In this document: positions 9,202 through 55,484 of the stretch, piece by piece
Layout of the letters: each line of letters opens with the position of its first letter
How positions within the stretch are numbered: position 1 is the stretch's first letter
NCBI GenBank assembly: GCA_964525635.1
Contig: CAZGJX010000002.1
Coordinates: 6,224-70,223, forward strand
Direction of reading: 5' to 3'
DNA: 64,000 bases
From: an uncultured archaeon
GTDB lineage: Archaea; Asgardarchaeota; Lokiarchaeia; Sigyniarchaeales; SOKP01
Translations under genes and position numbers: made by a program
The notes under the pieces: generated by a model
Told to the model about the DNA's origin: nothing
Databases searched by the model: none
The model's input: the letters and a program-made list of their open reading frames with translations, nothing else

Positions 9202-10506
9202 TTATTTTATAATCTCAAGACACTTACCAGTCATATAAGCAGGTTTTTGAATATTAAACAAATTTAATAAAGTTGGTGCAATATCTTCATAATTAATGCT
9301 ATTAAATTGTTTAGATTTTATATTTTTACCATATGCCATGAATAATCCTTCTTGTGTATGAAGAATTGCATTTCTTCCTTTTGTAATAAACATAGAAGGA
9401 TTATGATTAAACATATATTTTTCATTTAGAACTATGAATAGACTGGGGAAATCTTTTAAATTAGTAGAGATAATCTTTTTTATTTTTTTTTCCTTAAGAA
9501 GTGATTCAATAATTATTTTTTCTTTTTTTTTATCCTCTCCTTTCAAAAATAAACCACCAACATTTGAATTATAACTAAAAGCTTTTGATATCTCTATTTT
9601 ATTTTTATCAGTTTTTTTTTTTTTAGTATTACTTTTCTTTTTTTTTGATATTTTTTGAAATCTTTTTTTAAATAAATATAATTTTTCATAATCTATTTTT
9701 AATATTGGTCTAAAAAAATCATAGATTTTGGAAATAAGACTATATATTTTATGTTGACTTGATTTATTAATGAATATAAGACCTTTTTTTTCCAACCAAC
9801 GAGTCATATTAAAATCATGTTTATAAAATCTTAAACCATGATCACTAAATATAATTAGATTGTCAATTTCACCACTATTAAGAATCTGACCTATAAAATC
9901 ATCTATCTTTTTATATCCTAAATATATATAATTTTGAATTAATGGTTGAGATAGCCTAGTATGATGAGAAATAGAATCCGGCATCCTTACAACATAAGTT
10001 AATAGATTGTAATCTTCATATATTTTTTCTAAAAACAAATCTTTCTTTATTTTAAATGCCTTAAAGATGTCTTTTATTGTTTTTCCATTAATTATCCAAT
10101 TCTCTTTTAATTTGAATTCTAATTCCTTTGGAAAACAACTTATTTTAGGAGATAATAATCCTGTAATCATCTCACCATTAATATTCCACGCAGGATAGGT
10201 TCCTGGAACATTTAATACTAATTGTCTTAAATCCTTGTGTGAGAAAATAGATCTTTCTCTCCAAATAAATGAATTAAAAAGACCTTTTTCTGGATGAGTA
10301 AACCAATAATATCCAAGTTGTTGAGGATTTTGTCCAGAAAACATACAAGGCCAAGATGGAATTGTTATTGGTGGCATTGTAACGCAAAGTTTTGAAGATA
10401 CTCCCTCATTGATTATTTTTTTGAAATTAGGTAATATTTTTTTTTTTAATAGAGGTTTTATGGATTCAAAGCAACCACCATCAATACCTATTATTACATT
10501 TTTAAT
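9202..10506 (-). CDS. alkaline-phosphatase superfamily paralog; probable non-canonical ATT start at 10506
   Basis: The track ORF (9202-10377) starts at MPPITIPSWPCMFSG, in mid-domain. The frame stays open 43 codons further up and encodes IKNVIIGIDGGCFESIKPLLKKKILPNFKK, collinear with the N-terminus of the 7643-9175 paralog. That stretch contains no ATG/GTG/TTG. A GGGGAT motif lies 4 nt before ATT 10506..10504. Confidence 0.65.
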   Translation of the reverse strand: MKNVIIGIDGGCFESIKPLLKKKILPNFKKIINEGVSSKLCVTMPPITIPSWPCMFSGQNPQQLGYYWFTHPEKGLFNSFIWRERSIFSHKDLRQLVLNVPGTYPAWNINGEMITGLLSPKISCFPKELEFKLKENWIINGKTIKDIFKAFKIKKDLFLEKIYEDYNLLTYVVRMPDSISHHTRLSQPLIQNYIYLGYKKIDDFIGQILNSGEIDNLIIFSDHGLRFYKHDFNMTRWLEKKGLIFINKSSQHKIYSLISKIYDFFRPILKIDYEKLYLFKKRFQKISKKKKSNTKKKKTDKNKIEISKAFSYNSNVGGLFLKGEDKKKEKIIIESLLKEKKIKKIISTNLKDFPSLFIVLNEKYMFNHNPSMFITKGRNAILHTQEGLFMAYGKNIKSKQFNSINYEDIAPTLLNLFNIQKPAYMTGKCLEIIK

Positions 10507-10726
10507 TTAAATCCCCTAATCTTTCTTATTATTCTTGATCTATCTTATATTATGGAAATATATCATTTAAATAAAAGTTTTTGTTCTTTTTATTCAAGAT
10601 CATTAATTAAATGTTTATAAAATATTTTATATAAGATTTAGTTAATTTAAAAAGATAAAATCATATAATTGGATCTTTTTCTCTGGAAAATAGATTAAAA
10701 ATCATTATTTTGTATATAATATTATT

Positions 10727-11785
10727 CTACATTAATAGACCACTGATGAATTTAAAATATTCTTCAGCAGCTTTTTCCCATGAATATATCTTAACAATTT
10801 CAAGACCTCTTTCCCTCATACTTATTCTTAAATCTTGATCCTTATAAATATCGATGATTAATTCTGCTAATTTTTTATAATTAAAAGGAGGAAAATAAAT
10901 CGGAAAGTCTTTATATATTTCCCTAAATACAGGAATATCTGAACATAAAACTGGGAGTCCAGAGGAGGCAGACTCTAGCCCAGGTGCCCCCCATCCTTCG
11001 TATATAGAGGGAAAGACTAGAATATTGCATAAATTATAGATTTCTCTCAATCTATCATTAGTTATTCCATTTAAATAAATAATATTTTTTTCCAATCCCA
11101 TTTTTTTTATTAAATCTTGGAAAATTGGTTTACCAATCCGGATTAATAAAATCTTTTTTATTCTTTTTTTAACAATATAATAGGATTTTAATAATGATAG
11201 AAAATTTTTTCTCGTTTCTTCTGTTCCTACATGTAATATTTTAAAATATTCAGGATAAAATGAATTAATTTTTAATAATTTTTCATCAGATATTGGATAA
11301 AACATCTTTTTATTTATACCATTTTTAATAACTTTTATTTTTTCTTTTGGAAAACCTAATCTTTTAATCAATTCATTTTTAGTAAATTCTGATATTGCGA
11401 TAATATATCTACATTTCTTTAATCCTGAAAGTATATATTTTTGCAATAAAGAATTATTTCGAATATTTTTTTTTTCCAAAAAAGTATAAATATCATGACA
11501 AGTGACAATTGTTTTTGATTTATCAAGAAAATGTACTAAATCACTATGAAATTGAGCAGGTATATGATTAATAACTTCATTTTTATTGCTACTTAATTTA
11601 CACTGTATTGGATAATTAAAAAATCTCTTATATAAGAAATCGATTTGGTTTTTGGGTGGTTTATAGTATAAATAAGAGATTCCAATATTTCTTTGGTTTA
11701 TTAATCGTTTATCTAATTCAATTTGTCTTCTTAAGATTCCATTTATATTATCTAACTTTCTACCAATATAATTTAATATTTCCAT
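10727..11785 (-). CDS. glycosyltransferase family 4 (GT-B)
   Basis: YEGWGAPGLESASSGLPVLCSDIPVFREIY (E-x7-E region); 352 aa. Confidence 0.85.
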   Translation of the reverse strand: MEILNYIGRKLDNINGILRRQIELDKRLINQRNIGISYLYYKPPKNQIDFLYKRFFNYPIQCKLSSNKNEVINHIPAQFHSDLVHFLDKSKTIVTCHDIYTFLEKKNIRNNSLLQKYILSGLKKCRYIIAISEFTKNELIKRLGFPKEKIKVIKNGINKKMFYPISDEKLLKINSFYPEYFKILHVGTEETRKNFLSLLKSYYIVKKRIKKILLIRIGKPIFQDLIKKMGLEKNIIYLNGITNDRLREIYNLCNILVFPSIYEGWGAPGLESASSGLPVLCSDIPVFREIYKDFPIYFPPFNYKKLAELIIDIYKDQDLRISMRERGLEIVKIYSWEKAAEEYFKFISGLLM

Positions 11786-39361: not shown

Positions 39362-40792
39362 ATGATTAAAATGAATAGAGAAAAAGAAGACTTAGTAATA
39401 ATGAAATTTGGTGGTTCATGTTTACAAGATATTGAATCTTTTTCACAAACTACTGAAATAATAAGAGATTATCTTAAAAGTTCGAAATTAATTATAGTTA
39501 CATCAGCTTTTAAAGGTATAACAGATAAACTTATTAATTTTTATAATAAGTCTTGTGGGGATGGATCAGAATGTAATGAAATCATTGATGGAATTAATAC
39601 AATTCATAAAAGATTTATTAATGAAAATATAGAAAGTGATAAAAAAGAATATAAAAAAACTATTGACTTTCTAGAAGTAAACATAAAAGATCTAATCCAA
39701 TTGGGCAGAGTTGTACGCTTATTACGACCAAGTTTGGATATTCAAGATTTAATTATATCTTATGGTGAAAAATTAAGTACTTATATTGTAAATCAATATT
39801 TAAATTCAATCAATATTAGATCTCAATTTGTCTCTTCAGATGAAATAATTATTACAGATGATAATTATAGTAATGCTCTACCAATATTAGATGAAACAGA
39901 AAAACTTGTTCAAGAAAAGATCGTTCCACTCATTAATTCTGAAAAATATGATATTATTTCAATAACTGGATTTTATGGGTCAACAAAGGATCAAAAAATT
40001 ACAACTCTTGGTAGAGGAGGTACCGATTTAACAGCTGCAATTATGGCATACAGTTTAACTAACCATTACAAATGTAAAGTGATATATTGGAAGGACGTTC
40101 AAGGTTTTTTGGATGCAGATCCTAGAATTGCTAAACAAGCCTCTCTTTTAACTCAAATATCATATATAGAAGCAAAAGAACTTGCTTTTTTTGGATCTAA
40201 AGTACTTCATCCATTATGCTTAGACGTAAATGAAAAAGGAAATATTCCATCCGAAATACGTCCTTTTAATGAACCAAATTCGAAAGATTATACTACTATT
40301 ACAAAAGAAATTATAAAGGGAGAACAAATAGTAAAAGCTATTACTTCAATCCAAAGATTAACAATGGTAACAATTGAAAGTGGTACTATGATTTCTCTTC
40401 CTGGTACTGTAGCAAAACTTTTCAATTTGTTAGCTGAAAGCAATATTAATATAAAGTTTATTTCTCAGAGTTCCTCTGAAAATAATATTACTATTGGTAT
40501 AGACTTCGAAGATTCAATGAAAGTAAGTTATTTATTGAGGAATTCTGATTGGTTTGGAAAACAATGGTTTAGTATAAAAATAGATAATGATATATCATTA
40601 ATCGCTGTTATTGGAGCAGGTATGTTACATACGCCGGGAATTGCAGGTAAAATATTTACAATACTTGGTAATAATAGAGTAAACATAAGAGCAATTTCCC
40701 AAGGATCTTCTGAATTAAATATAACTATTGTTATTGAAAGAAATGATTGTATAAAGGCTGTAAATGTGTTATACGAAGCGTTTATTAGTTAA
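39362..40792 (+). CDS. lysC: aspartate kinase
   Basis: MKFGGSCL, GRGGTDLTAA, and two C-terminal ACT domains; 476 aa. Confidence 0.9.
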   Translation: MIKMNREKEDLVIMKFGGSCLQDIESFSQTTEIIRDYLKSSKLIIVTSAFKGITDKLINFYNKSCGDGSECNEIIDGINTIHKRFINENIESDKKEYKKTIDFLEVNIKDLIQLGRVVRLLRPSLDIQDLIISYGEKLSTYIVNQYLNSINIRSQFVSSDEIIITDDNYSNALPILDETEKLVQEKIVPLINSEKYDIISITGFYGSTKDQKITTLGRGGTDLTAAIMAYSLTNHYKCKVIYWKDVQGFLDADPRIAKQASLLTQISYIEAKELAFFGSKVLHPLCLDVNEKGNIPSEIRPFNEPNSKDYTTITKEIIKGEQIVKAITSIQRLTMVTIESGTMISLPGTVAKLFNLLAESNINIKFISQSSSENNITIGIDFEDSMKVSYLLRNSDWFGKQWFSIKIDNDISLIAVIGAGMLHTPGIAGKIFTILGNNRVNIRAISQGSSELNITIVIERNDCIKAVNVLYEAFIS

Positions 40793-40887: not shown

Positions 40888-42126
40888 TTATTTGAAGAAA
40901 TTTTTGAATTTGTCGTTTCCTAAATTAACACGAATTTCTTTTCTTTTTTCTAAAGGTAAATTCTTTTTTAAAGCCTCATTACATATTTTTTTTCCGATAT
41001 TTACTTTTGGATTATTAGCCCAATTCACATCCAATAATAAACATAAATAATAAACACTAGATTGTATAAAAGCGATTAAATTTCCTATTCCTTTCGCATC
41101 AGGATTATCTATAGTAATTATACCTGAAGGTATTTCTTCTTCAATTAATGCTTGAAAAGTAGCATCTGCTTGATAATCTACTACGTTTTGTCCAGACTTT
41201 CCTTCAATATATTCAATAGAGGACTTAAGTTCTAGATCAGGATACTCATTATTAACTTTATAAAGTATTGGAATTATAGCTCCTTTAGTGCCTCCTAAAA
41301 TATATTCTAAAACAGAGTGTTGACATAATGGTGCTTCTTGATATGCTCCCATCAATCCTTTATCTTCTTTTCCAGAACTCTCTGAGATTTCTTGAACCAA
41401 CAATCCTACGCTTCCTTCTAGGTTTTTAGAATATGGCATAGAAAATACAACCTTATATTCTTTTTTGTATAAATTATACAAAAATGAAGCAAATTCTGTA
41501 CTTGCATTTCTATTCAAATCCATATATATATTATAACCTTCTTTTAATCCTTGTAGAAAGCTATTAATATTAATACCAGAAAGATATGCAGGAACAATTC
41601 CAACATTAGTAATTGAACCAGCAAATCTACCAGATAAATCAGGAACTTCTAAAATAGGGGCATTGATATTCTCTAATAATTCCTTCATAGTACCTCGTGA
41701 TGAAAGACCTAGAAATTGATATCCTTTTTCTAAAAAAATCCCAATTGTAGCATTAACATCAAGAGTTTCTCCACTTCGAGAAATTGGAATAACTATAGAA
41801 TCTTCTGAATTTGTTTCTTCTAAACATTTGAGCAATTCTATTGATCTTGAACTCGTTATAGGATAAAACTTCTTTTTAGATAAATGACATATGGATAACA
41901 TTGTCTGAATTGATCCACCAGTTCCAAGTACTATAATATTCTTTATTTCATCCTTTAAAAATGGATTTGACATTTTCTTAATTTTTTCAAAATCAAGATA
42001 CGAGTCAATATCGATGAAAAAAGGAGCATCCCATTTTTCTTTATTTTTCTTTATACCTTCAATATTATCATTAAATAATTCGTCATTTATTTTTGGATAA
42101 TATTCAAAGGTTAAACCTAAATTCAC
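40888..42126 (-). CDS. pgi: glucose-6-phosphate isomerase (archaeal short PGI, SIS fold)
   Basis: VLGTGGSIQT and ISRSGETLDVNA correspond to the GxGGS and SKSGxTxE motifs. 412 aa with a GTG start. Confidence 0.7.
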   Translation of the reverse strand: MNLGLTFEYYPKINDELFNDNIEGIKKNKEKWDAPFFIDIDSYLDFEKIKKMSNPFLKDEIKNIIVLGTGGSIQTMLSICHLSKKKFYPITSSRSIELLKCLEETNSEDSIVIPISRSGETLDVNATIGIFLEKGYQFLGLSSRGTMKELLENINAPILEVPDLSGRFAGSITNVGIVPAYLSGININSFLQGLKEGYNIYMDLNRNASTEFASFLYNLYKKEYKVVFSMPYSKNLEGSVGLLVQEISESSGKEDKGLMGAYQEAPLCQHSVLEYILGGTKGAIIPILYKVNNEYPDLELKSSIEYIEGKSGQNVVDYQADATFQALIEEEIPSGIITIDNPDAKGIGNLIAFIQSSVYYLCLLLDVNWANNPKVNIGKKICNEALKKNLPLEKRKEIRVNLGNDKFKNFFK

Positions 42127-42311: not shown

Positions 42312-42671
42312 ATGTCTGAAGATCAATTTCAACATTTATTGCATAATATTTTTGATAATATAGAAGGAGTCAGGTCCGCAGCAATAGTCTCACAAGAAGG
42401 TCTTGTTGTCCATTCCATTTTAGAAGAAGGTATTTCTGAAATAAAATTAGCCGCAATGACTGCTACAATTCTTTCTGTTGCTGAAAAAGTTCTTCATGAA
42501 CTTAAATCAGGAATTCTTGATGTTTGTATTGTACAAGGAGATGATGGGAATTTTTGTGTCATGGAAGCAGGACCAGAATTAATAATTGCTGTATGTTTAA
42601 ATATAGATGCTCGTATGGATACTTGCTTCATAGAAATGAGAAAAGTCTCAGAACAAATTAAAAATATATAA
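42312..42671 (+). CDS. Roadblock/LC7 (MglB-like) domain protein
   Basis: 119 aa. IEGVRSAAIVSQEGLVVHS...LAAMTATILSVAEKV...GDDGNFCVMEAGPELIIAVC is the classic Roadblock pattern. Confidence 0.85.
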   Translation: MSEDQFQHLLHNIFDNIEGVRSAAIVSQEGLVVHSILEEGISEIKLAAMTATILSVAEKVLHELKSGILDVCIVQGDDGNFCVMEAGPELIIAVCLNIDARMDTCFIEMRKVSEQIKNI

Positions 42672-42842
42672 ATATTGTTTTTTTATACAAACCACCTTTT
42701 ACTTCACTTATTTATTAATGAGTTATTAACTTTAAATAATTAAAAATCTGAAAACTTGAACTCTATTCTATTTAAAATAACTTACAATCATAATATAATT
42801 AAATAAAACTATAAAAAATACACCAAATATATGTGATATCTT

Positions 42843-44078
42843 TTGGCAAAAACAATGGAAGTTAGTAATAATGGAAGTATTGAAATGGGTGAACCATATT
42901 ATTGTAAAGAGTGTGGTAGAACTCATCAGAAAGGAAAGATTTATCAAGATCATTTTAAATATGCTCAAAATCAAGAAAATATAGAAGAAAATAATGAAAT
43001 CGAAGATTATAATGAAGATATAGAGTCCGAAGATATTGATGATATTGATGATATCGATTATGATCAGGATGAAATCCTTGATGATGATATTGATGAGGAA
43101 TATGTTGAAAATGAAATAGATGAAAGGACTTTAGATGATTGTATAGATGAAGTCAAAGGACTTCCTGGAGTAGGGGATGCAACTTTAAAAAAATTAATTA
43201 AAGCAGGTTTTACAAGCCTTGAATCTATTGCATACACACCCCCTTCAATAATTCAAGAAGATAGTGGTTTAGGAGAAAAAACTACTGCTACTCTCATTAA
43301 AGCTTCTATGAAAAAATTAAACATAGGATTTAAATCAGCTCAAGATTTATGGGAACATAGAAAAAATATTACGAGAATTTCTACAGGGAGTCAGGAATTA
43401 GATAATATTTTTGCAGGAGGAATCGAAACTGGATGTGTTATTGAATTCTTTGGAGAATTTAGAACAGGAAAAACCCAAATTATGCATCAATTATGCGTAA
43501 ATGTTCAATTACCTCTAGAAAAAGGAGGTCTTGAAGGAAGAGCACTCTATATAGACACAGAAGGTACCTTTAGACCCGAAAGAATTATCCAAATGGCTGA
43601 AGCACTTGATTTAGACTATGATACAGTTTTGAAAAATATAATTTTTGGCAGAGCTTATAATTCAGATCATCAAATCCTTCTTGCTAAAGAAGCAGCAAAT
43701 ATTATAAAAGAAAAAAATATTAAGTTAATAGTTGTTGATTCTTTAATTGGTCATTTTCGAAGTGAATATATTGGAAGAGGAACACTCGCCACTCGTCAGC
43801 AAACAATAAACCAACATTTACATGATTTACTAAGATTATGTGATATTTATCCCCAATTAGCTGTTGTTGTAACAAATCAAGTTCAAGCAAAACCAGATGT
43901 ATTTTATGGTAATCCCATACAAGCTGCTGGTGGTAATGTTATTGCTCATGGTTCAACTATAAGAGTTTATTTAAGAAAAGGTAAAGGAGAGCAGAGAGTA
44001 GCAAAAATGATTGATGCTCCTCATTTACCGGAAGGAGAAGCTGTTTTCAGTATAACTGAAAATGGTATTTCAGATTAA
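42843..44078 (+). CDS. radA: DNA repair and recombination protein RadA with about 95-aa zinc-finger + acidic N-terminal extension
   Basis: Hh[26 protein letters not shown], Walker [10 protein letters not shown], Walker B LIVVDSL. N-terminal [19 protein letters not shown] followed by a D/E-rich tract. TTG 42843 is preceded by GTGAT + 5 nt; the alternative start is ATG 42855. Confidence 0.92.
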
Positions 44079-44205
44079 TAAATATCTTATTTTTAATTAT
44101 TATTTTTAAAATTCTAAATTAGTTAAAATATAGAATTTTTAATACAATTACTAGATGTTTTAGAATGGATATATAAAATTAAAAAAAATTAAAAATAAAA
44201 ATTAG

Positions 44206-47200
44206 TTATAAATTTTCAAATTTTTTAGATAAACCAATTAGTCTCTTAACTTCATCCTGCATTGAGTTGACACCTAATTTGAAGGCTTCAGATGCTTTAT
44301 TAGCAGCTTGTTTGAATTTTTCAGCAGCCATTTTATAATTCTTTTTCTTAAGTTCTTTCTGAGCCTGAGTTTCAAATTCTTTCTTACTTAGCATTGTATC
44401 ATCAATCTGGGTAAGACGTATAGCTTCTTGTAGTTCTCCAAGAGGTCTTTTTAAACCCCAATCATTAGCGATTATAGCAGCTTCCTCATAATATATAATT
44501 GCTTTTTTGTATGATAATACTTTTTTCTCTTTCCTTGCTTTAATAACGAGGATTTTAACCTGTTTTGAAGCCTCTTTGTTGGTTGTAACAACCTTCCCTG
44601 CAATTTTAGATTTTATTGGAGCCGATACAATCTCTTGCTTTTCTTGTAAACTTGCGAAATAAACTTCACGTTCTTGAGCACTCATTTGTGCCAATTGATC
44701 AATCATTGCCTGTGTTTCTTCACGAGGCAAAGTAACAAACTCACAGATCCTCTGTTCAATAAGCTGTTTTTCTTGTGGAGAAATAGCTTTACTTTCTAAA
44801 GCAGTAACGTCCCAAGGTATCAGTATTTTCTTTTCTCTTAGCTCTTTTATACCCATGAATATTTTTGAAATACCCTTCGTTGACTTTGTCATTGTCTTTT
44901 CAAGTAAGTTGGATATAAATATATAGTCTTTCCCTGTTTCTTTCGATATAGATTTAGCATTACCCAATATATCTTTTGAAGTAGTTATCCTTAAATCTTT
45001 GATAGCAGAGGAATCTAATTGAACTTGATGGGGAAGAATAATCGAGGTTTGGAAAATCTCATCTATCGAAGGGCCAGCATCTTTAAAAACATTCAACTGA
45101 CCTCTCCAGTTTGGTAAGGCAGCAGAATATCTTTGTTCAAAGAATTTAATGAATTCTCGAAGTTTACTTCTTAATAAAATAGATGCTTTTTTACTTAAGA
45201 CTAAAGAAACTCTGATATATTGACCATCAGCAAGTAGAAGCATCTTGTCTTCATAGCTTATTTCATTTAGTGCTTTTTGAGATTCTACTTCCTTTCCAAA
45301 TGATGAAACTGCTGATATAAATCCACTTATCAAATCGGGATCTATTTTTTCTGAACCATAAGATTTGAAGAATATGCAAGTACCGCTTCCCTTATATAAC
45401 ACTAAAATATGTTCTATATTTACAGCATCATCAAATACAGTCTTAACTTCGTCTAAAACACTATCTCTTCTTCTTTTCTGAGGAACTACTACTTTCTTAT
45501 AACCGACAATACCAATACTTGCCATTATTGCAGCCGCCAAGATTAATAATATATAAGGTATTAAATCTTCAAGATTTAATCCATCAGGTGGAGATTTTAC
45601 TCTTATATAAGGAACCTCATAACTTCCAGGTTCATGGTTATACGTCTCGGCGAAAGTAATTTGTATTGTCATATTTGCTGCTTGGTTGGGAATAATTATT
45701 TGAAACCAAACTACTCCATTACTATTGGTACTATTTTGAGGTATTGCTAAAGGTGTTGTTGTATTATCTTTATTTAGAAATAAGCCTGAAATACTTACTA
45801 GGGTACTTGTAAGAGGAAGCCATTGAGTACCATCATTATATTCACATAGTATTTTTAAATCAAATGAATTCCCTGCTGTCACTGAACTAGGAAATGATGT
45901 TGCATTGATTCTTACTTGATATTTTGCATAGATTGTGATATTAAAGGAAATCGAAAGTATATTATATGGCGCAAGACTAGCATTAATATCTATTCTGTAA
46001 AATCCAAGATCTAGTATAGAGGTTCCTATATTACCCGTATATTCATTTCCACTAGGATTTAATGATGAAGATAATGTATCTTCTTGTAATGATATCAAAT
46101 TAGTAGCATTAATAGTAAAAGTCACTGGTACCCCTTGAATAGCGATAAGATCGACATAATTATAACATGAAATATTTAAAGTTAATTGAAGATCACTCTC
46201 TTCAAAAAAAGTATAATTTCCAGAATCCCACAATCCTCCTTGAGTATTAACTGAAATAAAATTGATTTGGGTATCATCTCCTGCATAATAAAATTCAATA
46301 ACACTAGAGACACTCCAATTATAGTTTGGAGGATATGAGATATTTATATAGAAAGCATGCCAATCCAAGGTTAAACCAATAGTACTTATATTTAACTCGT
46401 AATCTCCATTTCCCAGTTCATAAAGCGACCAATTAAATATATCTCCGGTATACCATAAATCTTGGGTTGCATTATCAAATACTTGAATATTACTAGTTTT
46501 TAGACCTTCTATTCCTCTATCATTTAAAATATCATTGTAATAGAAAGTGACTGTTTGGTTCCATGTAGAACCTTCGGTAACTACATCATTAAATATTAAA
46601 TTTACAATTTGAGTTTGGGCGTGTATTACATTGATTGTAATGTTTATATATTGAGTTTCATTACCCTCAGAACTTATACTAAAATCGCATACATAGGGGG
46701 AACCTGAAACATCTACATCATTAGTATCTATTAAAATGGTATAATTTCCATTTCCATCATTTGACCAAGGATACACAGTAAATCCAGTGGGTATATCTTC
46801 AGATAGAATGCTAGCTGCTGTAATTGGATTACCATCTGTATCAGAATAATTGAAGGTATAGGTTGCATTTTGCCCTCTTATGATATCACCCAAGTTCGGA
46901 GTATTTGTTGGAGTTATTTGTGTAGTTATAATTTCATTAAACCAAAAGATAATAGTATCATTATTATAATTATCTTTCCATGCTTCAATTTCTATATAGT
47001 TATTTCCATAACTAAGAATTGTAGTATCAATTTCAATTTCATAAGTCCCATTATTATGATCCCACCAATTTAAAGGAGCTGGTGCATTTGATTCAATATT
47101 TCCGCCTAAAATAGGCTGATTTTGTCCAGTATCATTATAATATACAGATATATTAAAAATTTCTCCAAAAAAATATTCCAGACCTACCTGTGAATTAAGA

Positions 47201-48933
47201 ATTAAATTAGTTGTTGCGTTAATTGTTAAAACTCTTTCTTGAAATCCAATATCTGTTCCATTATTCCATAAAACTTGAGCTCGAAAATCACCATAATCTG
47301 TTGCATTTTCGCTGATATCCCAAGTAGTCATACTAAATGTTGTATCAGCACCTAAAATAGATACATCTTGTGTTTCATTATGATTCAAAATATTTCCTGC
47401 ATCATCAGGGCTATAAACTTCAAGTGTGATATTACCATTTGACATTGTTCTATCGAAGCTTACTTCAAAATCAACTGTCTCATTAAAATTAACTTCATAT
47501 GTCTCAATAGGCCCTAAAAAGATTTGAAAACTAGTCATAAGATTTTGAGATTGACTAGTTATGAACCAATTGGTACTATTCCCTGCATTAGTTATTTGAT
47601 ACTCTCTATACTCTCCTATCGCTGGACCTAATATTGTATCATCAGTAACATTAAGAATTGAATTAAAAGCTTGTTGATTACTCCAATGATGCGGTATTGT
47701 GAAATTAATCCAATAATTACCATAACCTGACTCTGAATCAAAACAATCAATATTTCCTAAGGTAATGATCCAATATACATTTGGATCTGTTTCACTACAA
47801 TTAAAATATGATGTTGCTTTTAGGTCTGAACGAGTATAATTTACTTGAATTTGGGTTACTTGACATGACACATCCCACCATTCAGCAGTTATTTCATAGG
47901 ATAATTGATTTGGTAAAATTGTATATTCTTGACTAAAAGTTACATTTCCTGATCCAGGACTAGAACCAAGTATTGGATTGTTATTAATTTCGAGCCCAAT
48001 TTGAGATGGTGTTGGTGTATTGCTCTCGGGAACCAAACCAACTCTCATTAGATAATCTATAGTATAAGAACTTCTAACAACTAAATCCCAATCTCCAGAA
48101 ATATATGTCAAACTAATTGTTTGATCTCCATCTCCAGTAATACCTCCATCTAATGTATTATACCATGCACAATCTCCTCCATAAGAGGCATCATCAAATA
48201 AACCTATAAACCATATCTTATCCATTGTCTTTGAGTTATCCAATTGAATATTTAATCCAGTAATTACATGCCATCCATCCCCAGTAGCATTTGATATATC
48301 TATAAGTTGTTGAAAATCATTGATACCCCCTCCAGGTTTATATGTTCCTAGTCCAGAATCATATGTAGCATTATATAAAACAACTCTAATTCTACCAGTC
48401 GCAAGTTGCTCTTCAATGAAAACAGATATATTATTGATATAACCATCCCCTTCTACCTCAAAAGAAGTTACTCTAGGAATTACTGTCGAAAAATCTCCAA
48501 CACTAAAATCTTGAGGATTATTCTCTTGTAGTATTAAATATTTATCAGGAGCATAAATATTATCAATATTTATCTGTGAAACTGTAGAATTAAAATTCTT
48601 TTCAAAAGGAGTATTTGTAGTAAATGTTCTTATTGCAGGATCAGATACATTTGTTATATCAAATAGAGGTGCACCAACTTCAATTTTTGATTGATGTAAG
48701 GTAGTATTTATATCTTGAGAATATCCATCATAATAACCAGAATATGCAGCTGATTTTAAAGTAAGGTCGTCCTCTATAGGTTCTATTTCATTATCATCAT
48801 CAACACTATTCATTCCACAAGGAAAGTTCAAAAAATTAGTAAATCCTACCGAAAACAAGAATGAAACAGTTAGAATCGCTAAAAGAATTATTCTATTTGT
48901 TTTTTTATTTTTAAATTGTAACATATTTATCAA
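44206..48933 (-). CDS. giant type-I surface protein: signal/anchor, about 1080-aa sequon-rich beta-rich ectodomain, one TM helix, 430-aa cytoplasmic tail with Roadblock/longin-like module and helical C-terminus
   Basis: 1575 aa. TM LIPYILLILAAAIMASIGIVGY (nt 45499-45564) is followed by KKVVVPQKRRR. The tail contains NIEHILVLYKGSGTCIFFKSYGSEKIDPDLISGFISAVSSFGKEV...MLLLADGQYIRVSLVL. My manual count gives about 42 N-x-S/T sequons before the TM and none after it. Confidence 0.8.
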   Translation of the reverse strand: MINMLQFKNKKTNRIILLAILTVSFLFSVGFTNFLNFPCGMNSVDDDNEIEPIEDDLTLKSAAYSGYYDGYSQDINTTLHQSKIEVGAPLFDITNVSDPAIRTFTTNTPFEKNFNSTVSQINIDNIYAPDKYLILQENNPQDFSVGDFSTVIPRVTSFEVEGDGYINNISVFIEEQLATGRIRVVLYNATYDSGLGTYKPGGGINDFQQLIDISNATGDGWHVITGLNIQLDNSKTMDKIWFIGLFDDASYGGDCAWYNTLDGGITGDGDQTISLTYISGDWDLVVRSSYTIDYLMRVGLVPESNTPTPSQIGLEINNNPILGSSPGSGNVTFSQEYTILPNQLSYEITAEWWDVSCQVTQIQVNYTRSDLKATSYFNCSETDPNVYWIITLGNIDCFDSESGYGNYWINFTIPHHWSNQQAFNSILNVTDDTILGPAIGEYREYQITNAGNSTNWFITSQSQNLMTSFQIFLGPIETYEVNFNETVDFEVSFDRTMSNGNITLEVYSPDDAGNILNHNETQDVSILGADTTFSMTTWDISENATDYGDFRAQVLWNNGTDIGFQERVLTINATTNLILNSQVGLEYFFGEIFNISVYYNDTGQNQPILGGNIESNAPAPLNWWDHNNGTYEIEIDTTILSYGNNYIEIEAWKDNYNNDTIIFWFNEIITTQITPTNTPNLGDIIRGQNATYTFNYSDTDGNPITAASILSEDIPTGFTVYPWSNDGNGNYTILIDTNDVDVSGSPYVCDFSISSEGNETQYINITINVIHAQTQIVNLIFNDVVTEGSTWNQTVTFYYNDILNDRGIEGLKTSNIQVFDNATQDLWYTGDIFNWSLYELGNGDYELNISTIGLTLDWHAFYINISYPPNYNWSVSSVIEFYYAGDDTQINFISVNTQGGLWDSGNYTFFEESDLQLTLNISCYNYVDLIAIQGVPVTFTINATNLISLQEDTLSSSLNPSGNEYTGNIGTSILDLGFYRIDINASLAPYNILSISFNITIYAKYQVRINATSFPSSVTAGNSFDLKILCEYNDGTQWLPLTSTLVSISGLFLNKDNTTTPLAIPQNSTNSNGVVWFQIIIPNQAANMTIQITFAETYNHEPGSYEVPYIRVKSPPDGLNLEDLIPYILLILAAAIMASIGIVGYKKVVVPQKRRRDSVLDEVKTVFDDAVNIEHILVLYKGSGTCIFFKSYGSEKIDPDLISGFISAVSSFGKEVESQKALNEISYEDKMLLLADGQYIRVSLVLSKKASILLRSKLREFIKFFEQRYSAALPNWRGQLNVFKDAGPSIDEIFQTSIILPHQVQLDSSAIKDLRITTSKDILGNAKSISKETGKDYIFISNLLEKTMTKSTKGISKIFMGIKELREKKILIPWDVTALESKAISPQEKQLIEQRICEFVTLPREETQAMIDQLAQMSAQEREVYFASLQEKQEIVSAPIKSKIAGKVVTTNKEASKQVKILVIKARKEKKVLSYKKAIIYYEEAAIIANDWGLKRPLGELQEAIRLTQIDDTMLSKKEFETQAQKELKKKNYKMAAEKFKQAANKASEAFKLGVNSMQDEVKRLIGLSKKFENL

Positions 48934-49185
48934 AATATGTATAATTTGCTTAATATATTATAACTAAAAAGTAGTTATTTTCTAAAATATATTTATTCTT
49001 TTTGTTATTTATTATTTGAGATTTTCTTAGACTTTTGTTCTAGGGATACACTTTAAAAATACGAAAAATTTAGTAATTATCTTAAAATGATCTTGAATTA
49101 TTTCAATTTTACCTAATTAATTATATAAATTTAATATATAAATTTAATTTGAAAATAGTAAGAATTATAAATTCTAACACATGTT

Positions 49186-49869
49186 TCAAGATTTTAATAT
49201 AATTCTAGCATCTACACATATAAGCTCTTTTTGATACACAAAAATAGGATTCAAATCAATTTCCTGAATGGATTTATATTGTAAAACGAATTCTGAAATT
49301 TTCATTAAAATATTAATAATTGCATCAATGTTTACTTTAGGTCTTCCTCGAAATCCTGTTAATAATGGAAATCCTTTAATCTCCGTTATCATCTCACGAC
49401 AATCATATTCGGTTACTGGAATAATTCGAAAACTAACATCATCTAAAAGTTCAACCAAAAGCCCTCCAATACCAAACATAAGGGCGGGTCCAAATTCAGG
49501 ATCAGTTGTCATACCAATGATAATTTCGGTAATCGGAGGCTCAGCCATCTTTTGTATGGATATTATCTTTTCTTTTTCAGAAGTTATATTCATAAGTTCA
49601 TTGAATGCATTTATTGCTTCTTCTTTATTCTTAATATTTAATTTAACAGCTCCCATTTCTGATTTATGGGCGATATCCTCAGTAATTAATTTCATAACAA
49701 TTGGATAACCTATTTCATTAGCAACAACAATGAGTTCTTCTTTGGTTGATACTAGTTTTTGATTAGGTATTGGGATACCTATTTCTTTTAATATCTCTTT
49801 AGAATCAAATTCATTGATAATTTCCTTTCCCGCTTGGATTTTATTCTTGAGAAACAAATTAATATCCAT
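49186..49869 (-). CDS. acdB: acetate--CoA ligase (ADP-forming) beta subunit (ATP-grasp)
   Basis: Collinear with P. furiosus ACS beta as I recall it: IGYPIVMKLITEDIAHKSEMGAVKLNIKN, GPALMFGIGGLLVELLDDVSFRI, EIDLNPIF. Confidence 0.85.
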   Translation of the reverse strand: MDINLFLKNKIQAGKEIINEFDSKEILKEIGIPIPNQKLVSTKEELIVVANEIGYPIVMKLITEDIAHKSEMGAVKLNIKNKEEAINAFNELMNITSEKEKIISIQKMAEPPITEIIIGMTTDPEFGPALMFGIGGLLVELLDDVSFRIIPVTEYDCREMITEIKGFPLLTGFRGRPKVNIDAIINILMKISEFVLQYKSIQEIDLNPIFVYQKELICVDARIILKS

Positions 49870-50010
49870 TTAAAATCATTTAATAATAAAGTAGAAGTGT
49901 TTACTAAACATTTCTGAATAGTTTATAGAATAATAACATGAATAAAAAATTAATCAAAACACTTTTAAAACCGAAATTAAATAACTCATATAAGAATTAA
50001 AATTTTCAAG

Positions 50011-51102
50011 ATGATTTTTATGGTAAGTGAAAAAGAGAAAAATATCACAATTTTAATGGAAAATTTGGTTAACTCTGGATATGATGTAGAATTTGTATTT
50101 CTCTATAATAGACAAGGGTTACTCATAGCTAAATATGAAAAAACTGAAACAGACGATAACCATAAAAATAAAGAAGATATGGAGGAAGTTTATGGAGCAA
50201 TATCTACTTTAGTAGATAATCTTTTTAATAAAATTTCAATGGAATATAAAAGTGATAATTTTGGAACAGGTTCTTTCGACACACCAGATCATCGTATAAT
50301 CTTTCTTGAAGCGGGTCCCGAAGCCGTTATGGTCTGTGTATGCAATTATCAAGCAGATCTAAATAGAGTATTTCCAATAGCATATTTAATTGTTGAAAAA
50401 ATTGCTCAATTGATTGAAGGAAGTTTTGATTTTAAAGTTAATTCCTTAGAGATTCCCCAATTAAGTATTCATAGAGACTTTGATTTATATTTAGATAAGC
50501 ATAAAACTGAAAATACTAAACCTTTACTTGATAATATATATTTAAAACACCGAATTGAAAGGGAAAAAAAAACAGATATTAATTTTAAATTAATTATATT
50601 AGGTTCAGCTTCGGTTGGGAAAACTACTTTAGTAAATAGTTTTTTAAAAAAAGAGCAGCTGTTGGATTATCGTCCAACAATAGGAATGAGTATTTCAATG
50701 CAAAAATATTATATACAAGGTTTTAAAGATGATATAATTACATTTTTAATATATGATTATGCTGGACAAGAGTTTTTCAAACGCGTTAGACATGAATATT
50801 ATAATGGAGCGAATTGTGTTTTTGTGGTGTATGATATTACCAGAAGAGAAACCTTTGATGAAAGTATCGATTTTTGGTTTAAGGATGCTAAGGAACAATT
50901 AGGTGATATACCCTTTGTAATTATTGGAAATAAGATGGATTTGTTGGATCAGCGTCAAATATCAATAGAAGAAGGAAAAAAAAAGGCAGAAGAATTAAGG
51001 AGTTTTTTTATAGAGACTTCAGCATTATATAATAAAAATGTAGTAGATACCTTCAAATTGATAGGAATAGGTCATTTCTTTAGAATTATTGATATTCTTT
51101 AA
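50011..51102 (+). CDS. Roadblock/LC7 domain fused to a Rab/Ras-like small GTPase
   Basis: aa 12-137 are Roadblock (VEFVFLYNRQGLLIAKY...IIFLEAGPEAVMVCVC). aa 191-355 are the GTPase: G1 GSASVGKT, switch I YRPTIG, G3 DYAGQE, G4 GNKMD, G5 ETSAL. There is no C-terminal Cys. Confidence 0.88.
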   Translation: MIFMVSEKEKNITILMENLVNSGYDVEFVFLYNRQGLLIAKYEKTETDDNHKNKEDMEEVYGAISTLVDNLFNKISMEYKSDNFGTGSFDTPDHRIIFLEAGPEAVMVCVCNYQADLNRVFPIAYLIVEKIAQLIEGSFDFKVNSLEIPQLSIHRDFDLYLDKHKTENTKPLLDNIYLKHRIEREKKTDINFKLIILGSASVGKTTLVNSFLKKEQLLDYRPTIGMSISMQKYYIQGFKDDIITFLIYDYAGQEFFKRVRHEYYNGANCVFVVYDITRRETFDESIDFWFKDAKEQLGDIPFVIIGNKMDLLDQRQISIEEGKKKAEELRSFFIETSALYNKNVVDTFKLIGIGHFFRIIDIL

Positions 51103-51124: not shown

Positions 51125-52144
51125 TCAAATTTGAAAAAATACTATTTTTATTGTTGCATAAAATGCATAAAAACTTATTAAAAGGATAGATTCCCGTGTT
51201 TTAAGAGACTTCTTCGTCCATAGAAAGTAATATGCGATTGATATTCCTATAAAAAGCATTGGTATGTCATAAAATAATAAAATCTTTACGACCTCGAATT
51301 CAGCAATAATAGCACCTGCACCTGTTGCGAAAAGAATATCACAAATGTTGGAACCTAAAATATCCCCTATAGCAATACCATATGAACCTCTTCGCATTGC
51401 AGTTAAATCAACGACAAGTTCAGGTACACTTGTTCCCAAACCAACAATTAAAATACCAATAACATTTTCAGGTACATTTAATTCTTCAGCTAAATTGTGT
51501 CCTGAAAGTATAGATATTTCAGCACCAACTAATAAGAATAATAAACCAATTAGAAAATATAATATATCTTTCCTAATTGAAGGTATTCTTAAGGAACCTT
51601 TCTTAACCTCTAGCTGGAGTGGATCTAATCCCTCTCTCTCAACTTCCTCTATTTTTGGTTCTGCTTTTCTTAATTTTTTCTCACTTATAATTATTAAAAT
51701 TAAATATATGATATATATAATAATCATTGTTAAAGCTTCGATACGAGCTATTAATCCATCAATTGCGAATAGCAAAAAAATAAAAAGAGATAAGAATAAC
51801 ATAGGTCCTTCTCTTCGTAATTCCCATTTGCTAATAAATATTGTCTGTGTTAATCCTAAGAGTCCTAATATAAACGTAATCTGAGTAAAAAATGAACCAA
51901 TTTTATTTCCAATAACTATTCCATCTACAGAGGGATCAATTCCTAAGAGTTTATCAAATCCCCCCATAATTGAGACTGTTATTTCTGGTAAGCTAGTTCC
52001 AATAGCTAAAATCGTCAAACCTACCATTAGGTAACTTATACCAAACCGTTTCGCGATACCTTCTAATCCAATTATGATATATTTAGCCCCAAAATATAAT
52101 GCAACAAATCCTGAAAGCATAAATAAAATTGGATATAACATCAT
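51125..52144 (-). CDS. Ca2+/Na+ antiporter (CaCA family, YrbG/NCX_Mj-like)
   Basis: Alpha-repeat motifs GTSLPEITVS and GLGTSVPELVVD in a 10-TM-type protein. Confidence 0.85.
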   Translation of the reverse strand: MMLYPILFMLSGFVALYFGAKYIIIGLEGIAKRFGISYLMVGLTILAIGTSLPEITVSIMGGFDKLLGIDPSVDGIVIGNKIGSFFTQITFILGLLGLTQTIFISKWELRREGPMLFLSLFIFLLFAIDGLIARIEALTMIIIYIIYLILIIISEKKLRKAEPKIEEVEREGLDPLQLEVKKGSLRIPSIRKDILYFLIGLLFLLVGAEISILSGHNLAEELNVPENVIGILIVGLGTSVPELVVDLTAMRRGSYGIAIGDILGSNICDILFATGAGAIIAEFEVVKILLFYDIPMLFIGISIAYYFLWTKKSLKTRESILLISFYAFYATIKIVFFQI

Positions 52145-52589: not shown

Positions 52590-55484
52590 TTACCCTTTTC
52601 TATGGAATGTACTTAAACTATTTTGAAATTTCTCGCTTTTATGCATTTTTCGCCGAGCAAGGAACTTTCTTATTTCTTCAGCAGGTAGTATCCATATTGA
52701 AGAACCGAAAAATACAGGTGTCCAGTAAAACCATCTATCAAGAGGAAGGGCATGAAAAGCCGTATTTAAACCAGGTATGAATAATACCATCAAATGTAGT
52801 GAAAATGAAAGCCCAGTTGCCCAAAATAAATGTTTATTTCGAAACTCCCAGAATGGTCGATAACTCGATGTGCAAGCAAAGACAAAGAATAATTCAAAAA
52901 ATACTACACTAGTAAAAACAATTGTTTGAACTATACCAATTTGAAAATCCTCAGCACTTATACCCATACTTGGTATACCATAGACCATACGCGAATCATA
53001 GAAAGTTGAAGTTGGATCTGTCCACATTGGAACTAAGACGGACCAAGAGACCGTATATAACATAACATCAAGGATAGCTGCAATAGCGGCTGCATATATA
53101 ATCATTTTCTTTATATCATGAATCATATTGAAGCCTTTCCGCGGTTTGAACTTCATAACATCTGGATCAGTGGGAGTTAGGCCTAAAACCATCGCGGGAA
53201 TGCCGTCGGTAGCTATATTCAACCAAAGGATTTGAATAGGTTGAAGTGGTTGGGCTAGGAATATATTAGTAGCAACCTTCATTAAAATAAATGCTACTAA
53301 TACCATTACAATCTCATCGAAATTAGCACTGAGCATATATCTAAAAAAACATTTTGTTGTTTCGAAGATTCCTCTCCCTTCTTCAATAGCGTTAACAATA
53401 GTAGAATAATCATCGTCTAATAGAATCATATCAGAAGCTTCTTGTGTTACTTCTGTCCCCTTAATCCCCATAGCGACACCTACATTTGCACCCTTTACTG
53501 CAGGAGCATCATTTACACCATCCCCTGTCATAGATACAATATATTCAAGAGATTTCAATGCCTTGAGGATTCTAAGTTTATGTTCTGATGTGACTCTAGC
53601 AAAAACATCAACCTCTTCTACTCTTTTTATAAGCTCGTCTTCAGGCATTTCTTCCATTTCAGCACCAGTAACAGCATCTTCTCTGTCTGTTAAGCCAATT
53701 TCTTTTGCTATAGCGATAGCAGTAATCATATGATCTCCAGTAATCATTATTGTTCGAATACCTGCCATTCTTGCTTCTTCAATAGAATCTTTTACTTCAT
53801 CCCGGGCAGGATCAATTATCCCTGCTAATCCAAGGTATATATAATCTTTTTCAATATCTTCCTTCTGATAATTTTCATTTAAAGGTTTATATGCTAATCC
53901 TAAAACTCTCAATGCATTAGAAGCATATTCATTATTTTTTGATAAATAAGTATCTTCAACCTCTGAAAATGGTTTAATTTCACCATTATATAACCCTTTC
54001 CCTGCATTATGCATTAAAACATCTGGAGCTCCTTTAATTAAAGAATAAAATTCTCCATTCATTCTAATAACAACAGCCATCATTTTACGATCTGAACTAA
54101 AGGGAATTTCATCAATTTTTTCTGCTTTTACGTTAAGATGCATTTTTTTTGCTAAGACTTTTAAAGATATTTCTGTTGGATCACCGATTACATCCGTTTC
54201 TATAGGATTGTTATCTTTAGGACTAACAATTGAATTATTACATAATAAACATATTTCTAGATATTTTCTTAAATAAACATCATCATCTAGTTTAACAGGA
54301 TTACCTGAACTATTGATTATTTTTCCATTCAATGTATATCCCACTCCTTCAACATCAAATTCTTTTCCCCCAAGATATACCTTCTTAACTGTCATTTCAT
54401 TTTTTGTTAAAGTTCCCGTTTTATCAGAGCAAATAATATTAACCCTTCCCAACGTCTCTACAGCTGTTAGCGTTTTCACTAAAGCATGTCTTTCTGCCAT
54501 TTTACGCATACCAATACTCATAACTACAGTTATTACAACCACAAGACCTTCTGGTACAGCAGATACTGCAAGACTTATTGCTATAGCTAAAGCTTCAACA
54601 ATATTATTAATCTCTTCATCTCCAAATTTTATACCTTCAGTGGCTATAATTATAATTAATTCAAAAAGGAAGACAAATAAACAAATAATCATTATGATTA
54701 TACCAAGTTGTTTTCCAAAACGATCTACTTCTTGTTGGAAAGGACTTTTTTCTGGTTCTTCTTCTTGAATTTTTTCAGCAATTTTTCCTACTTCTGTTTT
54801 CATTCCAGTTCTTACAACTATAGCTTCACCATTTCCACGAGTGATAATTGTATTACTATATACCATATTTTTCCTATCAGCCAACATTGTCTTCTCTTTA
54901 TATAAATTTAAATCTTTCTCAACTGGTTGAGATTCTCCAGTAAGAATGGCTTCATCAATATATAAAGAATATGCTTTATTTAAACGAGCATCAGCAGGTA
55001 TTTTATCTCCCTCATCAAGTTTTATTATATCTCCTGGAACTACTTCTCTGACATCAATTTCTCTTACTTTTCCCCCACGCTTAACCTTTGCATTGTGCGG
55101 TGCCATTTTCTTTAGACTTTCTACCGCTTTTTCTGCTTTAAATTCTTGATAAAATCCTAAAATAGCATTTAATATTAGAATAATCAATATTACTAAAGCA
55201 TCCATGAATTCAGTAGGATCTCTTCCTCTAGATAATTCATAAATACCTACTACAACTGAAACACCAATTGCAAAAAATAGAAGATATACAAGAAAATCCT
55301 TGAATTGTCCAATAAAAATTTGTAATGCAGAAACCTTCCTTGTTTGGATTAATTCATTAAAACCATATTTTTCAATGCGTACTCCTACTTCTTCTTCTGA
55401 AAGTCCTGTATCAAGGCTTGTATCTATTTCTTTCGCTACATCATTTACTTCTAATACGTGAGCACTTAATTCTTTAGATTCCAT
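52590..55484 (-). CDS. P-type ATPase, P2 (Ca2+-transporting, SERCA/PMCA-like)
   Basis: TGES, M4 VPEGL, ICSDKTGTLT, MITGDH, TGDGVNDAPA; 964 aa. Confidence 0.92.
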   Translation of the reverse strand: MESKELSAHVLEVNDVAKEIDTSLDTGLSEEEVGVRIEKYGFNELIQTRKVSALQIFIGQFKDFLVYLLFFAIGVSVVVGIYELSRGRDPTEFMDALVILIILILNAILGFYQEFKAEKAVESLKKMAPHNAKVKRGGKVREIDVREVVPGDIIKLDEGDKIPADARLNKAYSLYIDEAILTGESQPVEKDLNLYKEKTMLADRKNMVYSNTIITRGNGEAIVVRTGMKTEVGKIAEKIQEEEPEKSPFQQEVDRFGKQLGIIIMIICLFVFLFELIIIIATEGIKFGDEEINNIVEALAIAISLAVSAVPEGLVVVITVVMSIGMRKMAERHALVKTLTAVETLGRVNIICSDKTGTLTKNEMTVKKVYLGGKEFDVEGVGYTLNGKIINSSGNPVKLDDDVYLRKYLEICLLCNNSIVSPKDNNPIETDVIGDPTEISLKVLAKKMHLNVKAEKIDEIPFSSDRKMMAVVIRMNGEFYSLIKGAPDVLMHNAGKGLYNGEIKPFSEVEDTYLSKNNEYASNALRVLGLAYKPLNENYQKEDIEKDYIYLGLAGIIDPARDEVKDSIEEARMAGIRTIMITGDHMITAIAIAKEIGLTDREDAVTGAEMEEMPEDELIKRVEEVDVFARVTSEHKLRILKALKSLEYIVSMTGDGVNDAPAVKGANVGVAMGIKGTEVTQEASDMILLDDDYSTIVNAIEEGRGIFETTKCFFRYMLSANFDEIVMVLVAFILMKVATNIFLAQPLQPIQILWLNIATDGIPAMVLGLTPTDPDVMKFKPRKGFNMIHDIKKMIIYAAAIAAILDVMLYTVSWSVLVPMWTDPTSTFYDSRMVYGIPSMGISAEDFQIGIVQTIVFTSVVFFELFFVFACTSSYRPFWEFRNKHLFWATGLSFSLHLMVLFIPGLNTAFHALPLDRWFYWTPVFFGSSIWILPAEEIRKFLARRKMHKSEKFQNSLSTFHRKG

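Follow-up and report, generated by a model that had tools for sequence, protein, structure and literature searches.

The stretch considered here, positions 42312-51102 (8.8 kb), belongs to a window of 64,000 nucleotides (nt), which is the whole piece of DNA that was analyzed. It comes from an uncultured Lokiarchaeia archaeon (Sigyniarchaeales, SOKP01; GCA_964525635.1, CAZGJX010000002.1, positions 6,224-70,223, forward) and has a G+C content of 22-32%. The central gene encodes a giant membrane protein of 1575 amino acids (aa) and lies between radA and an acdB-like gene; a standalone Roadblock gene occupies one end of the stretch and a fusion of a Roadblock domain to a Rab-like GTPase the other. 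The stretch is read here as part of an old collinear, mostly housekeeping block of Lokiarchaeial (Promethearchaeota) chromosomes in which three proteins would carry modules of the Roadblock superfamily, the giant one being receptor-like with a scaffold tail, a reading that seems to us evenly poised between right and wrong. The original prediction for this stretch had placed its open reading frames (ORFs) correctly and had called it a neighbourhood, not an operon, which agrees with genes lying on both strands and with the intervening radA and acdB. The genes of the stretch are as follows.

42312-42671, + strand: standalone Roadblock/LC7 (MglB-type) protein, 119 aa (Pfam PF03259)
42843-44078, + strand: radA, a context gene outside any proposed system (Pfam Rad51, E=2e-95)
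44206-48933, - strand: giant, putatively type-I membrane glycoprotein, 1575 aa counted from TTG (ORF list; no Pfam or NCBIfam family)
49186-49869, - strand: acdB-like ATP-grasp_5 protein, a context gene (Pfam PF13549, E=3e-69)
50011-51102, + strand: Roadblock-Rab-like GTPase fusion, 363 aa (Pfam, profile-profile and PDB matches)

The giant membrane protein and its conserved tail

The giant protein can be divided into an N-terminal signal, a long ectodomain, one transmembrane (TM) helix and a tail of three domains, termed D1 to D3, all encoded on the - strand.

48826-48900, - strand: signal peptide or anchor, residues 12-36 (Kyte-Doolittle scan; same pattern in orthologues)
45565-48825, - strand: ectodomain, residues 37-1123 (sequon shuffles, orthologue identity)
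46189-47223, - strand: tandem repeats of ~100 residues, residues ~571-915 (hhalign of segments against the whole on orthologue alignment A4)
45496-45564, - strand: single TM helix, residues 1124-1146, then a positively charged stop-transfer (hydropathy up to 2.5 over 19 residues)
45130-45480, - strand: D1, residues 1152-1268, juxtamembrane helix and predicted Roadblock/longin-fold domain (AlphaFold2 (AF2) and Foldseek)
44596-45090, - strand: D2, residues 1282-1446, mixed helical with short strands (AF2; no significant PDB fold match)
44212-44580, - strand: D3, residues 1452-1574, TPR/MIT-like helical hairpin array as modeled (AF2, predicted local distance difference test (pLDDT) >90)

The TM helix is followed by the stop-transfer KKVVVPQKRRRD, and the tail measures 429 aa; together with the N-terminal signal or anchor and the 42 sequons of the ectodomain, this single helix agrees with the earlier description of a single-pass surface protein. 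The number of N-x-S/T sequons in the ectodomain compares with 19.9+-3.8 after shuffling, where 0 of 2000 shuffles reach 42, and the tail contains none. N, T, S, D and aromatic residues abound in the ectodomain, where K and R are scarce, and Lys makes up 13% of the tail. The sequon bias and the distribution of Lys and Arg support a type-I orientation in which the tail would lie in the cytoplasm. Full-length orthologues (80 species-level genomes) range from 1270 to 2265 aa, each with an N-terminal basic and hydrophobic signal. The start is likely M4 (ATG at 48924), as the TTG at 48933 is probably three codons early; M4 is invariant among the 17 orthologues of alignment A4.

A search with the tail returned 71 database proteins of ~50% identity, almost all of them partial; all are annotated as 'hypothetical' and none has a Pfam domain. 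The tail was also found at 80 species-level genome loci of Promethearchaeota (L008-L087; related loci are given L numbers throughout). These alignments show the tail of ~430 aa, made up of three domains, to be a module without annotation that is kept in at least 80 species of Promethearchaeota. Identity among orthologues is ~50% in the tail as opposed to 32-39% in the ectodomain, and this higher conservation of the tail fits a conserved intracellular partner combined with a variable outside.

The original prediction had noted a Roadblock/longin pattern in the segment directly after the TM helix, and this part of it stands at the level of a predicted fold. An AF2 model built from a 56-sequence alignment has a mean pLDDT of 77.5, with D1 at about 80. 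Its elements (helices H, strands E: H6-26, E27-34, E39-45, H53-66, E78-81, E84-90, E94-100, H106-122) run in the order of juxtamembrane helix, two strands, helix, three strands and helix, which in this model is the order of the Roadblock/longin fold and has been described for full-length Roadblock proteins (PMC10933270). When the D1/tail model was compared with the PDB by Foldseek, nearly all of the best 50 matches were chains of the longin/Roadblock superfamily, with probability 1.00 for most, E 6e-4 to 2e-2 and a target TM-score of 0.5-0.65; these include Fuzzy (9rs8_A, E=6.4e-4), 9lol_B, 7q3e_C, Mon1-Ccz1, LAMTOR2/3, AP sigma (target TM-score 0.65), zeta/delta-COP and TRAPP longins. D1 also holds many nearly invariant residues. 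The model argues for membership of D1 in the Roadblock/longin superfamily at the fold level only, Roadblock and longin not being separable. The best matches of the tail model thus lie among the tri-longin RabGEFs (Fuzzy-Inturned/CPLANE, Mon1-Ccz1) and the AP, COPI and TRAPP longins; however, the tail gives evidence of no more than one domain of longin/Roadblock type, the root-mean-square deviation in the long alignments with Fuzzy and Mon1 is 8-11 A, and there is no sequence similarity. Giant surface glycoproteins in which a Roadblock/longin-fold domain is fused to the TM helix appear not to have been described, and would be a new arrangement of a known fold; a full-text search of a limited literature collection found no described transmembrane longin/Roadblock surface protein in Asgard archaea.

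D2 has strongly conserved motifs, LPNWRGQL and TSIILPH among them. Its identification as a winged-helix or ESCRT-II-like domain, considered from the order of its secondary structure, is unsupported; the D2+D3 model has no significant fold match. A single 'dynein light chain' match in the PDB profile search (E=0.86) maps to D2 and not to D1 and was dismissed, and GSH-S_ATP matches in 15 tail-family members (E ~5e-4) are below any threshold and were treated as noise.

D3 is the best-predicted part of the tail (AF2 pLDDT >90). In the PDB profile search with the whole tail, which gave TPR-like matches only and no Roadblock or longin for D1, D3 matched a consensus TPR at 2.6e-7 and the VPS4 MIT domain at E ~0.2, and Foldseek returned the MIT domains of calpain-7 (E=0.054) and TPRs, all at E >=0.013. 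As in MIT (VPS4, calpain-7) and TPR proteins, the helices of the model pack in an antiparallel array, and the sequence has TPR-like motifs, but the matches of the window's D3 are below significance; the window's tail has no match to Pfam MIT (PF04212), and only a distant paralogue, P0071, has one (E=1.1e-5). D3 looks like a TPR/MIT-like array in its model, with a resemblance that stays below significance. P0071 (L088:2093-3466) is a soluble 457-aa paralogue of the whole tail, D1-D3, of which the C-terminus is the part scoring as MIT; its N-terminus is Cys-rich (CGINKNNC...CKEC), and its gene adjoins an ARPP-1 family gene and a helix-turn-helix (HTH) regulator. Two giant genes stand in tandem in L006 (11845-20362), the larger with three copies of D3 and the other, of 894 aa, with D3 only. 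D3 thereby appears to behave as a duplicable module, and the soluble paralogue together with this duplication suggests that the tail is a modular cytoplasmic unit.

The ectodomain contains at least three repeats of ~100 residues, detected as off-diagonal hhalign matches with E down to 5e-8. No family was assigned to the giant protein in Pfam or NCBIfam scans, and a profile built from the ectodomains of 17 orthologues had no match among PDB sequences at E<=1; matches to Big_13 and MG4 are weak and not significant. Approximately 40% of genome contigs break off within the part of the gene that encodes the ectodomain, and the majority of database entries are 'partial', which points to assembly being broken by the internal repeats or by strain-level variation of the ectodomain. 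At L090:5856-6742 the giant gene is reduced to a pair of overlapping ORFs, each in its own frame, which span no more than D1 and D2 of the tail; next to these frameshifted fragments are a Lactamase_B gene and an IS605 HTH remnant, and what is left of the giant gene is probably a pseudogene or the result of an ectodomain deletion.

The Roadblock protein and the Roadblock-GTPase fusion

Against PF03259 (Robl_LC7), the 119-aa protein scores 46 bits (cut-off 23; E=4.5e-12) over profile positions 5-89 of 91, and it matches solved Robl_LC7 proteins in the PDB (7f8m, E=1e-12). Its orthologues form 117 clusters at 61-100% identity, all from Asgard metagenome-assembled genomes. These matches identify it as a true member of the Roadblock/LC7 family, as the original prediction had it. 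In the window and in 16 of the loci L008-L087 the gene immediately precedes radA in the same orientation, and the pairing recurs in L005, L006, L089 and L090; the gaps in many species are 165-355 nt. In L089, a more divergent relative, an Arf/Ras-type GTPase of 177 aa and an ORF of 281 aa separate Roadblock from radA (8001-11218); a 746-aa RING-finger protein follows radA there, and beyond it is a 2788-aa giant protein without the D1-D3 tail. The window's radA has an N-terminal extension of ~95 residues ahead of its HhH domain (window 42843-43130), which carries a CKECGRTH...H motif and a long acidic D/E/I run and is apparently conserved, since tblastn alignments to relatives begin at residue 1.

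The gene at 50011-51102 had been proposed to encode a Roadblock-GTPase fusion, and both halves were recovered.

50032-50403, + strand: Roadblock domain, residues ~8-131 (hhalign 97.7%, E=2.1e-12, 115 columns; 11/58 relatives match PF03259)
50587-51060, + strand: Rab-like G domain, residues 193-350 (Pfam Ras, E=7.9e-41)

A direct Pfam scan of the N-terminal residues 1-185 gave no Roadblock match at E<1. When compared by hhalign, the profile of this N-terminus aligns with that of the standalone Roadblock over 115 columns (97.7% probability, E=2e-12), and a hidden Markov model of the N-terminus retrieves the window's own standalone Roadblock at 8.7e-14. A word-based homologue search with the N-terminus gave 2 proteins only; an exhaustive representative search with phmmer yielded 63 relatives, and among the 58 of these that were scanned, 41 carry a Ras-type G domain and 11 match Robl_LC7 (best E=5.9e-8). 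By the profile alignment with the standalone Roadblock, its retrieval and the relatives matching Robl_LC7, the N-terminus is a Roadblock domain and the fusion is real.

The closest PDB sequences to the G domain are Rab6 (4e-29) and a Thorarchaeota Rab (7ezb, 7e-27), with Rab14 also near. Its motifs GSASVGKTT, YRPTIG, DYAGQE, GNKMDL and ETSAL are all invariant in 16 orthologues (52-65% identity), in which the invariant elements are G1 GxxxVGKTT, the switch-I threonine, G3 DxAGQ, G4 NKxDL and G5 ETSA; the catalytic motifs are intact. The protein ends in ...HFFRIIDIL, with no cysteine, and the orthologues end in ...GLFFK, none of the 16 ending in cysteine, so that the C-terminal geranylgeranylation cysteine of a eukaryotic Rab is absent. 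The start is likely M4 (ATG at 50020), the one at 50011 being probably three codons early; orthologues mostly begin at the equivalent of M4 (MVSEKEK).

Both proteins are of known kinds. In relation to MglB/Roadblock-LC7 (PF03259; the Asgard Roadblocks of Tran et al. 2024, PMC10933270), the 119-aa protein agrees by sequence and the GTPase N-terminus by profile-profile comparison, whereas D1 has no sequence match and forms part of one chain with a TM helix and a giant ectodomain. The Roadblock-GTPase fusion architecture has already been described in Asgard archaea and is hence not new: the MK-D1 genome has 74 small GTPases, 26 of them fused to Roadblock or longin domains and the Roadblock-GTPase order included (Tran et al. 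2024, PMC10933270), and some of the 38 Roadblock domains of Lokiarchaeum are fused to GTPases (PMC4917890). The window's protein shares with these an N-terminal Roadblock, a ~60-residue linker and a small G domain without a prenylation cysteine. The fused architectures were grouped with Rag/Arf-like G domains (PMC10933270), whereas the G domain here is nearest in sequence to Rab6 and the Thorarchaeota Rab.

The neighbourhood in related genomes

The stretch is bordered by four further genes.

39362-40792, + strand: aspartate kinase (Pfam)
40888-42126, - strand: distant glucose-6-phosphate-isomerase-like (PGI-like) protein, 412 aa (NCBIfam E=9e-35, below cut-off)
51125-52144, - strand: Na/Ca exchanger (Pfam)
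52590-55484, - strand: P-type ATPase (Pfam)

The collinear block found in related genomes runs aspartate kinase, PGI-like gene, Roadblock (not always present), radA, giant gene, acdB, Roadblock-GTPase (likewise variable) and P-type ATPase. On the giant-gene side, counts refer to 80 genome loci, not every one of which covers each neighbour site. Neighbours of the giant gene in these are radA (71), the PGI-like gene (67), aspartate kinase (47), acdB (39) and the P-type ATPase (34). The Roadblock gene occurs between the PGI-like gene and radA in 16/67 loci, being missing from this place in 51/67 loci with radA present. A full-length orthologue of the Roadblock-GTPase (49-64% identity) lies between acdB and the ATPase in 15/34 loci covering that side, a distance of 1-3.5 kb separating it from the giant gene's 5' end. 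On the GTPase side, metagenome loci have acdB upstream in 29/34, the ATPase downstream in 39/45 and the giant gene upstream in 15/21, which indicates that the Roadblock-GTPase has a fixed chromosomal address; as far as found, there is no earlier report of its positional conservation between acdB and the P-type ATPase.

The three genes stand together in L016, L017 and L077 besides the window, and partial sets occur in many more genomes, so that the linkage on which the original prediction had staked its neighbourhood does recur. In a neighbour-joining tree of radA and the PGI-like protein, the Roadblock and the Roadblock-GTPase genes are present in several deep clades and sister genomes differ (L016 vs L023, L077 vs L078), a scattered presence which suggests an ancestral layout with repeated independent losses. 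In the 28 genomes that cover both sites, both genes are found in 3, Roadblock only in 2, GTPase only in 9 and neither in 14 (Fisher p=0.62); L001 and L002 likewise contain neither. General clustering of Roadblock and GTPase genes around the locus finds no support: an hmmsearch over 1.2 Mb of related loci found none beyond the two conserved positions.

The acdB gene is upstream of the giant gene on the same strand, 252 nt away, and divergent from the GTPase gene, from which it is separated by an intergenic region of 141 nt (49870-50010). This head-to-head layout of acdB and Roadblock-GTPase is seen again in related loci, and shared regulation from the intergenic region is possible. The Na/Ca exchanger was dropped as a member of the set, since it occurs at this place in 0/80 loci; it lies beyond the ATPase in L094, and a weak match (29% identity) lies between GTPase and ATPase in L160. 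The exchanger gene has the look of an insertion specific to this lineage, placed between neighbours that are otherwise fixed.

Interpretation and rival explanations

In the reading proposed here, the giant protein would be a surface adhesin or receptor-like envelope protein, the conserved tail of which may act as a membrane-tethered scaffold. D1, joined to the TM helix by its juxtamembrane helix, could serve as a platform for dimerization, for docking of small GTPases or for both, and the TPR/MIT-like end, D3, might bind a further cytoplasmic partner. Dimers of Roadblock and longin domains are platforms for small GTPases in MglB, Ragulator, TRAPP and Mon1-Ccz1. Docking on D1 could give Asgard GTPases that have no anchor of their own a route to the membrane; Rab-like GTPases of Asgard archaea do not contain prenylation cysteines (PMC10933270), so that a protein anchor is one way in which they could reach it. 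The neighbouring Roadblock and Roadblock-GTPase are candidate partners of the tail by position only, and it is speculative, and improbable in our estimate, that the partners are these two.

Several observations weigh against this reading. None of 56 tail-family members matches a Roadblock or longin family of Pfam (PF03259 at E<=0.01), and by hhalign the D1 profile reaches only E=0.24 with the Roadblock profile and E=0.036 with that of the GTPase N-terminus; the claim of three Roadblock-type modules in 8.8 kb accordingly holds by sequence for two of them and for the third at the fold level only. The fold match of D1 is itself modest in E-value and TM-score and concerns a predicted model, and a separate model of D2+D3 has no significant Foldseek match in the PDB. 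The Roadblock/longin fold is, besides, found in proteins with no action on GTPases, SNAREs and dynein LC7 among them. Conservation of the housekeeping genes of the block equals or exceeds that of the Roadblock genes, the Roadblock and Roadblock-GTPase genes were lost independently of each other and of the giant gene, and in L090 the giant gene has decayed beside a Roadblock and a radA that are both intact. GTPase genes of MK-D1 and other Asgard archaea are, moreover, generally not in operons with Roadblock or longin genes (PMC10933270). As the composite Lokiarchaeum genome holds 38 Roadblock and 41 longin domains (79 in total) and ~109 GTPases (PMC4917890), the chance of three Roadblock/longin modules in 8.8 kb is P ~4e-4 per stretch, or ~0.2 stretches per genome, which is unusual and not extraordinary. 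With such high base rates, and with GTPases generally outside such operons, position is a weak guide either way.

The most specific proposal, a receptor-to-GTPase relay, is put forward as a hypothesis. The ectodomain would sense a cue, and D1 would form heterodimers with the standalone Roadblock, with the Roadblock domain of the GTPase or with both, thereby switching the Rab-like GTPase at the membrane; there is a small chance that this is correct. In its favour, all three modules are real, at least at the fold level, and the three genes co-occur at the same places in three genomes besides the window, each pairing being phylogenetically widespread and the layout ancestral. Orthologues of the Roadblock-GTPase gene are hardly ever found away from this locus; transcription of the gene diverges from that of acdB (gap ~140 nt), which is directly upstream of the giant gene, and the GTPase has no lipid-anchor cysteine at its C-terminus (...FFRIIDIL). 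However, the presence of one Roadblock gene is uncorrelated with that of the other and differs between sister genomes; the giant gene has neither neighbour in 14/28 fully covered genomes; Roadblock stays beside radA without an intact giant gene (L090); unrelated housekeeping genes of the block are conserved even better; the genes of the stretch lie on both strands and form no operon; and D1 has no sequence kinship to the other two Roadblock domains. Since the conserved linkage is that of a whole housekeeping block, it is weak as positive evidence for a relay.

A neighbourhood that is merely coincidental is about as well supported as any specific relay, and it is a doubtful but somewhat better prospect than the pairing with these two neighbours. 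D1 would then only dimerize the receptor or pack on the membrane, with no role toward GTPases; the tail would act through its TPR/MIT-like end, for example as a tether to ESCRT-III-type or cytoskeletal filaments, and the neighbours would serve other pathways. Asgard genomes have many Roadblock/longin domains and ~100 small GTPases each (PMC4917890, PMC10933270), the chance expectation of such triplets is that given above, the whole block is collinear and the Roadblock and GTPase genes have been lost independently. The high pLDDT of D3, its duplication in paralogues, the MIT score of P0071 and the calpain-7 MIT domains among the top fold matches fit this view as well, but the MIT/TPR matches of the window's protein are not significant (VPS4 MIT E ~0.2; Foldseek E >=0.013), the best structural matches of D1 are exactly those superfamily members that serve as GTPase platforms, and D1 has more nearly invariant residues than a spacer needs. 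It is very improbable that the standalone Roadblock is functionally paired with co-directional radA, or with a GTPase encoded elsewhere, and not with the surface protein. The same-strand order with radA in 16 species-level loci, and in L005, L006 and L090 with their decayed or different giant genes, would fit such a pairing, as would the Arf/Ras GTPase right beside Roadblock in L089; the 165-355 nt gaps nevertheless leave room for separate promoters, Roadblock is missing next to radA in most loci, and we know of no link between Roadblock proteins and recombinases and of no functional rationale for the pairing.

Returning to the tail as a scaffold, the closest analogy among known systems is Ragulator-Rag, in which the LAMTOR1-anchored Roadblock dimers LAMTOR2/3 and 4/5 dock the Rag GTPases through their Roadblock domains. 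The shared logic would be a membrane-anchored Roadblock platform, a Roadblock-bearing GTPase and a free Roadblock, and LAMTOR2/3 are among the best fold matches of D1. The anchor differs, being the TM helix of a surface glycoprotein here and lipidated LAMTOR1 in Ragulator. The fusion also has its Roadblock N-terminal (8-131) and its G domain C-terminal (193-350), the reverse of the order in Rag, and its G domain matches Rabs and not Rags. Nor does the locus resemble MglA-MglB, as there is no mglA-mglB-type operon and 7.3 kb, including radA, the giant gene and acdB, separates the Roadblock gene from the GTPase gene. It is conceivable, and in our view unlikely, that the giant family is a transmembrane Roadblock/longin platform whose cytoplasmic Roadblock-like domain recruits Asgard small GTPases without lipid anchors to the plasma membrane beneath a surface receptor or adhesin, with the linked Roadblock-Rab-like GTPase as prime candidate, and that it represents an archaeal, receptor-coupled forerunner of the Ragulator-Rag or SR alpha/beta type.

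The role of the ~100 small GTPases of Lokiarchaeia, and their access to membranes without prenyl anchors, is an open question (PMC4917890, PMC10933270). The giant protein offers a concrete candidate for a protein anchor of Asgard small GTPases, with a conserved Roadblock-Rab-like GTPase nearby in many genomes. Even if the relay is wrong, the three-domain tail module, present in at least 80 species and always annotated as 'hypothetical', together with its variable glycosylated ectodomain, would help to annotate the Asgard envelope.

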